A stretch of DNA of 64,000 nt, taken from assembly GCA_024653345.1 (NCBI GenBank), contig JANLFV010000007.1, positions 4,605-68,604 on the forward strand. The letters run 5' to 3'. Position 1 is the first letter of the stretch. Each line of letters starts with the position of its first letter. The notes under the pieces were generated by a model, which saw only the letters and a program-made list of their open reading frames with translations, was not told the origin of the DNA and ran no database searches. A program made the translations under genes and the position numbers. Below, piece after piece: positions 20,068 through 24,295 of the stretch. Origin of the DNA: Candidatus Acetothermia bacterium (GTDB lineage: Bacteria; Bipolaricaulota; Bipolaricaulia; RBG-16-55-9; JANLFV01).

Positions 20068-21879
20068 TCACTGCCCCAGCGCGTTGGTGTCCAGGAACTC
20101 CTTAACGTTATTGAAAGCATTGAAGAACAACGGCGTCCCAGCAAACGAGAGCGGAGAGACCGGGCCGATAGTCATAAATGAATATTCTCTCGTTGCAATG
20201 TCAAACGATGAATGCGGGTCACGGAACAACTGATACAGGTCAAGGGCCTTACTACGCCCACCTACCAGCTCGCTTAACGCTTTGAACTCGGCCCCCATTC
20301 CCAGGCCAAAACCGAAGAAGAAGATGCGTAGTTGCTCCAAGATCTCGCGATGTAGACTGGAGAGGGTTTGGCTGATGAACAGCCACCCGACCCCGTACTT
20401 GCGCGTGGTGCGCGCTGCATCAATCAAGATACTCCGCACCGCTTTCTTCTCCTCACTTTCAGGATCTTCACGGGGTGCAAGGCGGTGCGCTTCATCAATT
20501 AGCACCAGTGTATTGAGACTACGGTTCTGTTTATAGGCATATTCTGCCGCCGTGCGAATACCTTCCAACAATCGTTTGATGACCAGCGCTTGTATCATCT
20601 CATTCCAGAACAATGGAGTACTTTGAGGCTGGGATTGACCTCCACCAAAAAGAGGGAGCGTATTCAAACTGCCAGTGGTATGGGTTGCCTGTTCCACCGA
20701 TAAGTCTATCACAACAAGGGGCCGTTGCGCTTGATCGGGATCAAACAAACCCGCCAGTAACCGTTCCACTTTTTGTGCGCCCTGCCGGTCTTCACGAAAC
20801 AGTTGCGTGACAGGAAGCCAATAGTGGGTGAAGAAGAAATCGCAATCCGCTTGGTCATACATGGACTGAAATCGGGCTCGCGAGCCTTCCGTACGATAAA
20901 AGACCTTTTGTACATTCTCATCGCCAAGTAGCCCCCAGGCACGGTCGAAGGATTCACGGGTATGAAGGTCCTTTAGCGTAACTTTGGCACGCTGTAAGCG
21001 ATCAGCCAATGTGCTTGCTGCCAACTGTCGGTTTTCCCCCTTGGGAATGCTCAATTGTTCAAAGAAAGGCGACTCATAGAGGATTTGAGCAAACAGATCC
21101 CACCGGTCCAGCACCAAATCCCTCACACCGTGCACCTGAACCGGTTTCTTGAGCCTGTTCAAGACGTCTTTCATCGGCAACCGAAATTCACCTGGAACCG
21201 CGTCACCTCTAGCTTCTTTGGCAAATTCACCCTGAGGATCAATGACCAGAAGTGCCATCTTGGGATAGCGGGCATAGGCCAACAGAATCATCTTGGCGAG
21301 CACCGACTTGCCAGAGCCGGTTTTGCCAAAGATGCCAAGATGGTAGGCCTCTCCAGCGCCTTGTGGCCCAGTATCGAAATGCTTGAACTACAGCGGCAGG
21401 AGGGGCTTTGAGCCATAGACATGCCCCAGGTAGAAAAGCTGGTCGCGGTAGGGCGAGAGTAATTCAGATAAAACAGCATCATTGACAAGATGAATGGGCG
21501 TGCCCGTAGCCGGGACAGTGCCCAAGATGCTGGGACGATAGCCATTGGAACCGGCGGAGAAGACAGCACTGATCGTCATCTCTCCCAGATGGGTATCCTG
21601 GCGCTCGCTGACTGTATCTACCCGCCCGCGCTGACGGATCAGGCTACGCATCGTGGGGTCTTCGTGCCAGACGTTGCGCAGTTTCACCTCGGTGATCTGC
21701 CCCAGCGCGTAGTGGGAAAGGCCATCCTGGTGATAGCGGAACAAAGCCAGTTCCCCTACCAGCTTCTTGTTGACGGCTCCGGCCAGGATATCCAGCGCCA
21801 TTTCACTGGTAGAGGATGGCGACCCTACCACGCCAATCCGTTCCGCCTCGTCTACAAGTTGATCAAGACTCTTCTGCAT
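20068..21879 (-). pseudogene. herA: HerA-like (FtsK/HerA superfamily, DUF87-type) ATPase interrupted by one in-frame TAG at 21388-21390
   Basis: Track ORFs 21388-21960 and 20068-21303 are in the same frame. Own translation across the gap gives GSKPLLPL-TAG-FKHFDTGPQGAGEAYHLGIFGKTGSGKSVLAKM (Walker A). Walker B is LVLIDEAHRL, followed by RKYGVGWLFISQ. The N-terminus has a barrel-like IGVVGSPSSTSE. The likely start MQKSLDQ at 21879 has an AGGAG SD. Confidence 0.75.
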
Positions 21880-21883
21880 AGGA

Positions 21884-23035
21884 TCATACTCCTGATTCAG
21901 TGCGATAACCATGTAGGCCCAAAAAGACCTCGCTGATGTTTCCCTGGTAGCTTTCAGCAATGTGCTGGCTGGTTACTTGTCGGAACGTAGGGACAGCCTT
22001 AGGCAAGTGCTTTACCATCCGGTCCGCCATATAGAGAGGATAGGGTTCCATCACTGCAGGTGCACCACATTGATGGCGAATCCCGTGGAGCGCCGTGGCC
22101 AAGCGCGCCTGATTTTCGGCCACTGCACGGCTCATTTCTACTCGGAGTGCTGGAAGCCAAGGATAGGGCCGATAGTAAAGAGCCTGAATTTCGCCCAACG
22201 ATGAGACGATCTTCTCTGCTACGCGCTCGGCTGTTGCTCTCGTTGCAGTCTCAAGTGGATTCAGATTCAAGTGCCAGGGTTCGGTTGGTTGCTGCAGCAA
22301 CCTTGGGCTTGTGTATTCGCCTGGTTCCAAGAGAAAGCCCAAAAGACCACGGTCGTCGTATTTATCGGGCCATCCCATCCTTTGCCCAATTTCTCTTCTG
22401 GTCGTGTACTTGGGTACAGCCAGCCAACAACGGTCACTTCGAGTTGAAGCCAGTATTGTTAAGTATGCTTCCAGAAATGAGATTGCCTGGTCAAGGAAAC
22501 GGGCTGTAGTATGCAGATGTAAAGCATCCCGACTTGTATTCAATGCCTAGTTGAAGTAGATGAGAGGAGTGGTGAGAGACCCGTCCAGGAAGACAACCTC
22601 ATGCGGCGCTTGCGCGGCAAGCTCCAACTCCATGCCAATCATCAGGGCACGTAGGATCGTGCCGGTTTCGGCCTCGTGAGCTTCTGTCTCTACCCAAACA
22701 AGATGACGGGGTTCTGGCCAATGGCGCGTTTCCGAAGGTGGCGTGAGGCCTTCCACTGCGACGGCAGCCGCGGCGACCAGGTCGCTAGCCAGCAGTCGCT
22801 CCACGGCATAGGAGCCATCTATACCACAGGTCGTCGGGATGGGCATATAGGGAAGTTCGGCGTCACGATGAAGCAGGCCTGCTCGTTCAAGATTTGCTCG
22901 CCATTCCTGGCGACGCGCGCGTACTTGCTCAAAGTCGTCTAACAACTTCTGGCTGAGATCCTCCGTGCGTTTGAGGACCTCGTCCACTAACGCAGCAGGG
23001 AGTTCACCAAAGGGGCGTTCTACAGATTCCATCAT
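21884..23035 (-). pseudogene. nurA: NurA-like nuclease interrupted by one in-frame TAG at 22547-22549
   Basis: Track ORFs 22547-23035 and 21884-22543 are in the same frame (PLIYFN-TAG-ALNTSRD). NurA-type motifs are CGIDGSYA, VVFLDGSL and EPYPLYMADRMVK. The combined length of ~383 codons fits bacterial NurA. Confidence 0.65.
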
Positions 23036-24240
23036 GTTGCGGTCTTGTCCTGTTCGAGCAGTAGTAGATTTTTGATTTCCTCTTTACGCCACTCTCGCCA
23101 CCCATTCACACGCTCCGCTCGCGGCAGCAACCAGCGCTCTCGCCACCAGGCGACCAGCTCCGAGAATGGCAGGTTGCGATAGACTGGTTCAGCATCACGG
23201 CCTTCCATATAGGCCTCCAGATTGTTTACCAAACGAAACAAGAACACCTCTTGCTTCACACCGTGACGGAGCAAATCGGACGGGAGGCCTAACTGATCCA
23301 GGGCTCGCACCATAGTTTGCCATTTCCGGCGCGGACCGGTACCAAAGCCGCCTCGTGTTGAAATCCCTTGGCTTTCCAGAAATTCGCGGAACAACGGGTA
23401 AAGTTCCATCAAGTGAAAAGTGCCATAGCCTTCCGTATAACCAAGAGACTCCGCTATGACCGTTCCGTTATAGTTCAGGCGGTTATACAGGCTGCTGCGC
23501 CCAAAAGCACTTGTGGTCGTAAGCGCGACGAGATGGGGTGGCAAGATGCGCCCTTCCATCTCGGTAGCTCGTTCGGAATACTTACGCCAATAAACCTGGC
23601 GAATCTCATTAGAGGCTGCCGCCAGTGCTATCAGCTTTCCGCCCAATAGGCGATCGTAGGGTGGTACGGCTCCCAACGTTTGAATGTCCATCGTCTGGTT
23701 GACCAGTTCCGTCTTCTTGCCAGGAGGATAACGAAAGAGGCGGTCCCGCGCCGGGAAACTAAGAGGAGGGGACTGCAAAGCCAGCAGGCCGATCAGCTTT
23801 CCATTGGCTTCTTCCATAATCAGGAATCTCAGACGCCGGCCATAACCTTTGGAGAAAGGGAGAGACCAGAGCAGTCGGGCCACGCGAAAAAGGTTATGTT
23901 GTTGGGCTGTAACTACCTCGATTAGCGCTGGGCGAATACATTCTGGTGTGATTTCGTTTCCATCGGCGAAGGAGTGGAGATACCTAGACAGATGCTGCCG
24001 AAGCCAATCCTGACGGAGGGCGATTTCCAATTGAGCAGCAGGCCGGTGGAGCTGCCGCAAGCCGTCTTTATCAACAGCTGGCGGCTGTAGGATGGCGTCC
24101 TTTGCCATTACAAATCCGGCTTCTCTCAGCTTATCAAGCACAAGCTTCTTTAATTCTGCTGGATCCAATCTAGTCACTGAGTTATCAAGCTGTCGTGACC
24201 GGGCGATAGGTCTATCGCTTTGTCTTCTAGAGAGTGCCAT
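23032..24240 (-). CDS. DUF4338 (Druantia DruA-type)-like protein; family assignment is tentative
   Basis: Intact 402 aa ORF with a GGAGAGG SD and an ATGA overlap with nurA. The block pattern GRRLRFLI / GKLIGLLALQSPPLSFPARD / LGAVPPYDRLLGGKLIALAA / LTTTSAFGRSSLYNRL parallels the DUF4338 pattern as I remember it (QLRYFV / LGFGAAAWKVAPRD / NNARFLILPWV..NLASRIL / LETFV..GTCYKAANW). Confidence 0.5.
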   Translation of the reverse strand: MALSRRQSDRPIARSRQLDNSVTRLDPAELKKLVLDKLREAGFVMAKDAILQPPAVDKDGLRQLHRPAAQLEIALRQDWLRQHLSRYLHSFADGNEITPECIRPALIEVVTAQQHNLFRVARLLWSLPFSKGYGRRLRFLIMEEANGKLIGLLALQSPPLSFPARDRLFRYPPGKKTELVNQTMDIQTLGAVPPYDRLLGGKLIALAAASNEIRQVYWRKYSERATEMEGRILPPHLVALTTTSAFGRSSLYNRLNYNGTVIAESLGYTEGYGTFHLMELYPLFREFLESQGISTRGGFGTGPRRKWQTMVRALDQLGLPSDLLRHGVKQEVFLFRLVNNLEAYMEGRDAEPVYRNLPFSELVAWWRERWLLPRAERVNGWREWRKEEIKNLLLLEQDKTAT

Positions 24241-24265
24241 ACTACCCTCTCCACGAGCACTTTGG

Positions 24266-24295
24266 AGTATACCATCTGGCCCTGCAGCTCGTCAA
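24266..24295 (-). promoter_or_regulatory. island operon promoter TTGACG-N18-TATACT
   Basis: Minus strand reads ttgacg agctgcagggccagatgg tatact, ~25 nt upstream of the gene-1 ATG. Confidence 0.5.

Follow-up and report, generated by a model that had tools for sequence, protein, structure and literature searches.

We analyzed a 64,000-nucleotide (nt) stretch of DNA from the metagenome-assembled genome of a Candidatus Acetothermia (Bipolaricaulota) bacterium (contig JANLFV010000007.1), which is referred to here as the window, and focused on an island of about 4.2 kb on its minus strand. The island was located between plsY (19802..19197, minus strand) and pyrC (24448..25725, plus strand), and it carried genes for a DruA protein (gene 1), a NurA-like nuclease (gene 2), and a HerA-like ATPase (gene 3). 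We consider it reasonably likely that the island was a solo, horizontally acquired integron-type cassette with an unnamed DruA-NurA-HerA module and that this module most likely acted against invading DNA. Judging from its reading frames, the copy in the window was defective; that is, it was an example of the system and not a working one.

The preliminary description of this DNA had proposed that the island differed from its surroundings in base composition. The computed profile showed such a break at both ends: windowed GC content was 0.65 to 0.75 outside the island and 0.51 to 0.58 from about 19.9 to about 24.3 kb, and the GC content of the cassette was 0.537 compared to 0.68 in the 5-kb flanks. 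The flanking genes were confirmed as plsY and pyrC. The three genes were co-directional on the minus strand (DruA, 24240 or 24168..23032; gene 2, 23035..21884; gene 3, 21879..20068), with an ATGA overlap at 23035-23032 joining genes 1 and 2 and a 4-nt gap at 21883-21880 separating genes 2 and 3. Both junctions, by which the three genes form a translationally coupled operon, were visible in the sequence as described, and every motif that had been quoted for the three genes was present.

Gene 1 (23032..24168, minus strand) was intact and encoded a DruA protein (DUF4338, with a GNAT-like fold) of 378 amino acids (aa) from a TTG codon at 24168, a start position that was common to all relatives. 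The frame was also open for 24 further codons, to an ATG at 24240 with a strong Shine-Dalgarno (SD) sequence, which gave a product of 402 aa; depending on the annotation pipeline, DruA was listed as 358, 378, or 402 aa. Two profile searches agreed with the earlier assignment to DUF4338/DruA. Specifically, gene 1 was a full-length member of the Pfam DruA family PF14236 (E value of 6e-78), and it matched the PADLOC DruA model at 5e-97. Aligned over 97% of its length, the window protein shared 36% identity with the DruA encoded by the canonical DruABCDE locus of Ralstonia plasmid pUW163a. An AlphaFold2 (AF2) model of DruA was poor, with a predicted local distance difference test (pLDDT) score of 49 from a shallow alignment. 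The Foldseek matches of this model were almost exclusively GNAT acetyltransferases, which agreed with the statement by the Aravind lab that DUF4338 is a GNAT domain (PMC10853773). A profile search of the gene 1 alignment against PDB sequences yielded no meaningful match. DruA homologs were also observed in two settings that lacked DruB to DruD: on Meiothermus plasmid pMtWR-220 (L100), a gene for a 1,807-aa DEAD helicase was located upstream and transposase genes flanked the locus, and on a Leisingera plasmid (L101), a 659-aa DUF4338 protein was accompanied by two ATPases, a 2,094-aa helicase, and a NERD protein.

Gene 3 (20068..21879, minus strand; 603 codons) was a HerA/FtsK-family ATPase gene and a pseudogene, with a TAG codon ahead of the Walker A motif. 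Its product had a barrel-like region at the N terminus as well as the Walker motifs A (GIFGKTGSGKS) and B (LVLIDEAH). Against the Pfam DUF87 model of the HerA central domain, it scored 43 bits (gathering threshold of 23), which bore out the proposal that it was HerA-like. In PADLOC, it matched several HerA models (3e-15) and mad8 (5e-12). The scores against the equivalog models of NCBIfam were low: 26 for repair HerA against a cut-off of 970, and 17 to 22 bits for HerA_antiphage and HerA_antiphage_2 against cut-offs of 800 to 850. The HerA proteins of relatives were intact and 603 to 607 aa in length. A central segment of about 105 aa (aa ~256 to 360; 20800..21114, minus strand) was dimorphic, and the window carried form A. 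The two forms were 40% to 45% identical to each other, whereas the surrounding N- and C-terminal parts were 85% to 98% identical. The forms were shuffled among close lineages, and both occurred within Chloroflexus; they were compared in L001, L011, L015, L025, L028, and other loci. This pattern resembles the outcome of module swapping or of diversifying recombination within what may be one surface region.

Gene 2 (21884..23035, minus strand; 383 codons) was a divergent NurA-like nuclease gene and, due to an in-frame TAG, also a pseudogene. It contained the motifs CGIDGS, FLDGS, and YMADRMVKH. Some relatives at 80% to 91% identity had a precomputed PF09376 (NurA) match, and several were named NurA by NCBI. 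For structural comparison, an AF2 model was made from an intact homolog that was 95% identical (pLDDT of 65). All nine of its top Foldseek matches in the PDB were NurA (E values of 0.016 to 0.14; probability up to 0.98), including the NurA chain of the Thermococcus kodakarensis HerA-NurA complex and Pyrococcus furiosus NurA, at a TM score of about 0.3 from this pLDDT-65 model. The scores were weak but consistent with NurA. Both AF2 models were of low confidence due to shallow alignments, and they served only for the rank order of fold matches. A profile search of the gene 2 alignment against PDB sequences found nothing, and gene 2 had no match among the PADLOC models. Taken with the NCBI labels of the relatives, the Foldseek ranking upheld the earlier suggestion that gene 2 was NurA-like.

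The mobile nature of the island was indicated by its 3′ end. An attC site consists of R″ (RYYYAAC) and R′ (GTTRRRY) boxes that close an imperfect hairpin of about 57 to 141 nt, and it follows the open reading frame(s) (ORFs) of an integron cassette. The cassette begins at the G/TTRRRY crossover (the slash marks the crossover point) with a short leader sequence, and it lacks its own promoter. In the window, an attC-like site (19978..20065, minus strand) began 6 nt past the HerA stop codon. Its R″ box (GCCTAAC, 20062-20056) and R′ box (GTTGGGC, 19987-19981) closed an imperfect hairpin of about 82 nt (dG of about -40). RNAalifold gave a 31-pair hairpin, and a scan that combined regular expressions with folding detected the site at 20062..19981. 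An attC covariance model (R1) was built from six such sites; it scored 99 bits at the window site (E value of 1e-19), which was the sole match in the window. The 3′ element matched no known RNA family and no tRNA. Compared to the Thermanaerothrix daxensis (T. daxensis) copy, the attC-like site was 94% identical and the adjacent coding sequence was 82% identical.

Similar features were found around relatives of the trio. A post-HerA attC-like site was present in four other loci from different phyla, namely, Thermogutta, T. daxensis, Pyrinomonas, and a Synechococcales metagenome-assembled genome; the Thermogutta site was 64 nt long and had a different core. The covariance model also matched a further attC within the Pyrinomonas array and truncated sites where the L095 and L096 contigs end. 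In the case of L095, an attC upstream of DruA ended exactly at G/TTAGGC, so that attC sites stood on both sides of the trio. In Desulfosoma, an integron integrase gene was located 232 nt upstream of DruA (TIGR02249, 485 bits; cut-off of 265), and in Pyrinomonas, a frameshifted IntI homolog was located about 7 kb upstream in divergent orientation. The left junction G/TTAGGC, which is the complement of the R″ box GCCTAAC, was found in many loci. This motif or a close variant was located 41 to 75 nt upstream of DruA in L095, L010, L001, L021, L022, L024, L026, L027, and L032, and the left-junction motif was detected in 16 of 57 loci compared to a background of 10.5%. BLAST homology with every other copy extended from about 24172, which is the start of the 378-aa DruA, to 20 to 85 nt past the HerA stop.

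Because of the attC-like site, the integron integrase and attC arrays of relatives, and the G/TTAGGC starts, we read the island as an integron cassette. It was best described, from these sequence features, as a solo, unusually large integron-type cassette (~24216..19981, minus strand) in the divergent pyrC-plsY intergenic region, with a probable 5′ leader at 24169..24216 (minus strand) that was placed by alignment of upstream regions. The preliminary description had stated that no integrase, transposase, or tRNA marked the borders. No tRNA, Rfam feature, or IntI was detected there, but the attC-like site at 20062..19981 is a mark of mobility. Two other hairpins with RYYYAAC/GTTRRRY boxes (43631..43528 and 46605..46729) were picked up in the window by a loose regular expression; they lacked covariance-model support and were probably chance matches. 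In T. daxensis (L001), a second small cassette followed the attC of the trio (14205-14811), consisting of a 185-aa ORF without a Pfam match and a 72-nt attC-like site, and the 21-kb stretch examined there was an attC cluster without an integrase.

The island had also been credited with its own promoter and a GGAGAGG SD. Both sequences were present: a sigma-70-like promoter, TTGACG-N18-TATACT (24266..24295, minus strand), was the sole such match in the region (10 of 12 positions), and GGAGAGG was located 5 nt ahead of the ATG at 24240. However, they lay in flanking pyrC-plsY intergenic DNA, outside the cassette. Because homology with all other copies began at about 24172, neither the promoter nor the SD and ATG at 24240 could be the element's own. 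In the window, the interval 24169-24447 held the upstream ATG, SD, and promoter, all within non-homologous flanking DNA. The promoter may be a former plsY promoter that now drives the cassette.

The survey of relatives covered one genome per species, and 67 loci with enough flanking sequence were counted as assessable. It yielded 80 genome loci, which were spread over more than 12 phyla of bacteria and several lineages of archaea. All three genes were present in 58 of the 67 assessable loci, usually in the order DruA-NurA-HerA, which answered the question of whether the three genes are conserved neighbors across phyla; the trio is a conserved, widely distributed module. DruA was last in three loci, and NurA-HerA occurred without DruA in nine loci, mostly in methanogens. 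A gene of the trio was split in four other loci, and in L033, DruA and the 5′ end of NurA had been lost. The distribution was patchy (about 87 of 185,579 species genomes), and the gene 2 family comprised 569 clusters at 50% identity.

DruA and gene 2 homologs with 72% to 95% identity were found in Chloroflexota, Planctomycetota, Desulfobacterota, Cyanobacteriota, Bipolaricaulota, and other groups. At the nucleotide level, the window was 82% to 86% identical to the Desulfosoma, Brachytrichaceae, and Thermanaerothrix copies, and cassette identity ranged from 82% to 92% among Acetothermia, Desulfobacterota, Chloroflexota, and an unplaced contig. The GC content of the cassette was 0.49 to 0.54 whatever the GC content of the host (0.52 to 0.68), and the genes that flanked the trio differed in every lineage. 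By these sequence comparisons, the island was horizontally acquired. A phage or plasmid vehicle was considered and rejected, as none of 50,697 phage records matched the NurA-like protein and its plasmid matches were limited to three remote ones (23% to 28% identity).

Several loci linked the trio to defense genes. Two IMG/VR contigs carried a co-oriented overlapping operon of type III Mod, type III Res, DruA, NurA, and HerA (L184, 533-10985; L183, 27-10963), and the Res and DruA genes overlapped by 4 nt in L184. This arrangement suggests that restriction systems can be supplemented by the trio. In five genome loci, one or more variable genes were located between DruA and NurA (L060, 6854-9985; L070, 2769-5933; L058, 1946-5616; L062, 7355-9478; and L061). 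A defense scan covered three of the five, with L061 left out, and the inserts that it identified were a homolog of Tiamat TmtA with Sacsin-HATPase and NOV_C domains (4e-98), a Ser/Thr kinase accompanied by an ORC/Cdc6-like ATPase (PD-T4-6/CARF-STK-AAA-like, plus an HFX_2341-like protein), and an SMC-like ATPase (SMC/AAA_23). The L070 insert had the same Sacsin and NOV_C domains as the TmtA homolog, according to Pfam. In Methanoculleus (L090, 9941-18586; L093), NurA-HerA without DruA adjoined a DruE helicase gene (1e-131) and a gene for a PDC-M24B protein; in T. daxensis, a DruE-like gene was located 4 kb from the trio; and in Methanolobus (L087), NurA-HerA without DruA was located between a type I restriction endonuclease gene and type II methyltransferase/restriction endonuclease genes.

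The preliminary description had proposed a candidate module for defense or DNA processing. The restriction-modification (R-M) operon fusions, the embedded TmtA and kinase genes, and the DruE and R-M neighbors were strong associations that spoke for defense, while function was assigned by association only. We counted the mosaic HerA segment and the frequent gene decay together with these associations. On this basis, the trio is probably an anti-phage/anti-plasmid system.

A number of results weighed against a mobile defense cassette. In the window, the left junction was a degenerate GATAGAC (24216-24210) where relatives have G/TTAGGC. IntI was not found in the window, which had only one attC. 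Because of the missing IntI and the degenerate left junction, we considered the island a solo cassette at a secondary site. The attC-like sites after HerA were found only in the closely related clade (at least ~75% identical), with none in divergent loci, and the loose regular-expression scan gave 0 to 5 attC matches per shuffled locus. An empty plsY-pyrC site was sought in metagenome contigs and none was found; the closest pyrC relatives in that search were at most 61% identical and lacked plsY synteny. With three genes and 4.2 kb, the island was much larger than typical integron cassettes, and the integron literature stresses constraints on cassette size. Gene 2 scored 20 bits against Pfam NurA PF09376, just under the gathering threshold of 21, and the pLDDT values of 65 and 49 denoted low-confidence structure models. 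Finally, the immediate neighbors of the trio were mostly housekeeping genes, with DNA methyltransferases as the commonest defense-type neighbor (6 of 108); because of this, the classical defense-island signal, i.e., enrichment of defense genes among immediate neighbors, was weak.

The alternative that survived best, which we nevertheless regarded as unlikely, was that the trio is a DNA-repair module in which bacterial NurA-HerA end resection is paired with a GNAT regulator and has spread among mostly thermophiles. The closest clade consisted largely of hot-spring or thermophilic taxa, and the housekeeping neighbors would suit such a role. In archaea, end resection is carried out by NurA-HerA, and work on a bacterial complex, from Deinococcus, has addressed the same role; however, mre11 and rad50 were unlinked to the trio, which stood beside plsY and pyrC in the window and beside unrelated genes for housekeeping or defense in other loci, and gene 3 fell far below the repair-HerA equivalog cut-off. 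A repair function also fit poorly with a module that was mobilized as an integron cassette, patchily distributed, frequently decayed, fused with type III R-M genes, and split by inserted defense genes of the TmtA or kinase type, and DruA is otherwise known from Druantia.

The NurA and HerA ORFs of the window copy were each split in two by a single TAG. In NurA, the TAG was codon 163 (22547..22549, minus strand) where relatives have CAG (Gln), and in HerA, it was codon 164 (21388..21390, minus strand) where relatives have TGG (Trp); each change was one single transition. Both TAG codons recurred in L097 (JGI 3300038743), which was assembled independently from the same population. The stop in NurA removed the C-terminal half, and because the stop in HerA preceded Walker A, the ATPase domain was cut off. 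Thus, the nuclease-motor part was predicted to be dead, and only DruA was intact. In comparisons with the closest intact cassette (L095, 92% nucleotide identity), dN/dS was 0.15 for DruA, 0.10 for NurA, and 0.06 for HerA, and these values indicated that the inactivation of the window copy was very recent.

This pattern bore on the idea that the trio is a selfish addiction or stabilization module, similar to toxin-antitoxin systems, with GNAT toxins that acetylate aminoacyl-tRNA as the precedent for DruA. Toxin-antitoxin cassettes are common in integron arrays and stabilize them (PMC10661359), the cassette persisted in housekeeping contexts, and TacT, a GNAT tRNA-acetylating toxin, was among the weak Foldseek matches of DruA (rank 37). 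We considered this idea improbable. DruA was intact while both partners were dead and the host population persisted, so DruA alone was evidently not a lethal toxin that NurA and HerA neutralize. In addition, the large enzymatic proteins were under strong purifying selection, and the R-M operon links pointed to DNA targeting of invaders.

We gave about the same low credence, or marginally less, to the possibility that the island was partly an artefact, such that the contig was chimeric inside the cassette and the TAG codons or the plsY-pyrC placement were unreliable. Several community members held cassettes that were 80% to 92% identical. Three assemblies of the same Acetothermia population (the window, L097, and L098) overlapped by 11 to 17 kb, and all of their differences were inside the cassette, namely, 11 single-nucleotide polymorphisms (SNPs) plus a 3-nt indel in the HerA linker (20619-20736) and 6 SNPs in DruA (23474-23621). 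The L098 assembly broke inside DruA, but the other two assemblies, the window and L097, extended across both junctions and were identical in their flanks and in the TAG codons. The clustered differences could be microdiversity, gene conversion with other cassettes in the community, or assembly cross-talk, and real microdiversity or gene conversion explained the clustered SNPs equally well.

The weakest alternative was that a suppressor or recoding permits read-through of the TAG codons, so that the host has functional genes, which we rejected as hardly credible: both interruptions were the same codon and dN/dS showed no relaxation, but TAG was a normal host stop that closed 9 of 41 long host ORFs, no CUA-anticodon (suppressor) tRNA was found among the 7 tRNAs of the window, and the two codons replaced different amino acids (Gln and Trp), each by one transition.

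Elsewhere in the window, a cluster of tRNA-Ser(CGA), tRNA-Arg(GCG), and tRNA-Ser(GGA) genes, immediately followed by a large bacterial signal recognition particle RNA, was located at 14971-15572. It was about 4.4 kb from the island and was unlinked to it.

Having weighed these alternatives, we return to the reading of the trio as a mobile module against invading DNA. A more specific form of this reading, to which we gave slightly less than an even chance, was that DruA-NurA-HerA is a previously undescribed anti-phage/anti-plasmid system of a Druantia-related design, in which DruE/DruBCD is replaced by HerA-NurA, and that it travels between six or more bacterial phyla in an integron cassette of three genes and exceptional size. 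If the trio works like the HerA-NurA complexes of known structure, HerA would assemble into a hexamer and NurA into a dimer to form an ATP-driven translocase-nuclease, and this complex would thread linear or foreign DNA and degrade it from its ends. DruA, a putative GNAT-fold protein that is also part of type I Druantia, could be a sensor, a regulator, or an acetylating component that licenses or directs the nuclease. The formation of the complex, the action of DruA, and the drive by a flanking host promoter are all steps that we infer.

To our knowledge, Druantia is among the least understood major defense systems, and we know of no activity for DruA. In the trio, DruA is wired to a HerA-NurA pair whose biochemistry and structures are well known, which makes for a simpler system in which to learn the role of DruA. 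If the proposal is correct, it would provide a first tractable handle on the GNAT-like DruA, and it would mean that integrons outside Proteobacteria traffic multi-gene defense operons. The idea that integrons are biobanks of defense genes would then extend to a multi-gene, 4-kb cassette, which in thermal environments is passed around among Chloroflexota, Planctomycetota, Acidobacteriota, Cyanobacteriota, Desulfobacterota, and Bipolaricaulota. The finding further supports a speculation put forward in a 2026 paper, namely, that HerA-NurA may serve in antiviral defense (PMC12977600). In addition, it calls for caution in annotation: in such genomes, the label "DruA" is no sign of Druantia, and the label "DNA repair nuclease NurA" is no sign of a repair operon.

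No paper that joined NurA with Druantia was found in the literature search, in which DUF4338 was mentioned by only four papers. As far as these searches could show, the earlier remark that no described DUF4338+NurA+HerA system was known held: no named system was found in the literature, and PADLOC had no model for gene 2. Among the known systems that resemble the trio is type I Druantia, which on Ralstonia plasmid pUW163a has the canonical order DruA, a 477-aa protein, a 623-aa protein, a 371-aa protein, and the DruE helicase. The trio resembled it in that DruA was homologous over its full length and DruE was occasionally located beside this NurA-HerA family. Unlike type I Druantia, the window had no DruB, DruC, DruD, or DruE; specifically, PADLOC gave no DruB, DruC, or DruD match for genes 2 and 3, and a tblastn search of the window found no DruE. 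DruE (DEAD/Helicase_C plus DUF1998/MZB) is the signature gene of Druantia, and it adjoined NurA-HerA only in the Methanoculleus loci. We also considered and rejected a hidden Druantia, in which DruC (623 aa) and DruD (371 aa) would be cryptic counterparts of HerA and NurA. For DruC and DruD, Pfam yielded no significant or relevant match (none for DruD), and in the comparison with HerA and NurA, the hhalign probability was 0.2 and the BLASTP E value was 0.06. Because DruC and DruD were unrelated to HerA and NurA and DruE was absent from the window, we concluded that the island was not Druantia.

The SIR2-HerA and DUF4297-HerA systems (PMC11472057, PMC11291478, and PMC11514289) also pair a HerA-family ATPase and an effector enzyme, which are encoded together in a compact operon that is mobile, and in the case of DUF4297-HerA, the effector is likewise a nuclease. 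Here, in contrast, the effector was NurA-like rather than SIR2 or DUF4297/Cap4-like, DruA was an extra component, and gene 3 fell far below the cut-offs of the anti-phage HerA equivalog models. Pfam and PADLOC found no SIR2 or DUF4297 domain in the trio proteins. Thus, with neither effector present and the equivalog models below their cut-offs, the island was neither of these systems.

The HerA-NurA end-resection complex (T. kodakarensis, PDB 9x1n; P. furiosus NurA, PDB 3tal and 3taz; Deinococcus, PMC9960219) shares adjacent, coupled nurA and herA genes with the trio, as well as a HerA with a barrel and a Walker A/B ATPase, and the best structural matches of gene 2 were NurA. By analogy, a hexameric motor that feeds DNA to a dimeric nuclease is a likely further similarity. 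The trio differed in its very divergent sequences, in having DruA as a third obligatory partner, in being carried by an integron cassette, and in its links to R-M and defense genes.

The concept behind the HerA/FtsK capture systems described by the Aravind lab (PMC10853773 and PMC12839542) is that a translocase captures invader DNA and hands it to nucleases. The first of these papers resembles our interpretation in that DUF4338 is read as a GNAT that can be recruited to HerA/FtsK systems, but NurA is unmentioned, and DUF4338 appears once, as a domain fused to DndF. The second differs in that it deals with a seven-component, BREX-related HerA/FtsK system with a generic GNAT.

As a mobile element, the island was most similar to the defense integron cassettes described recently (bioRxiv 10.1101/2024.07.02.601686 and 10.1101/2024.07.02.601719). 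Neither HerA nor Druantia is mentioned in the integron-defense papers that were queried, and the same is true of NurA in 10.1101/2024.07.02.601686. The hosts of the trio were the six phyla named above, not Vibrio or clinical integrons. Like those cassettes, the island had a 3′ attC, a probable short 5′ leader, and defense-type cargo, and relatives of the trio were surrounded by IntI or attC arrays. Unlike those streamlined, small cassettes, it was about 4.2 kb in length with three genes, and the window copy was solo and located at a non-integron site. In sum, the trio appears to be new as a combination, and it joins two kinds of elements that were already known, namely, HerA-nuclease defense modules and defense-carrying integron cassettes.

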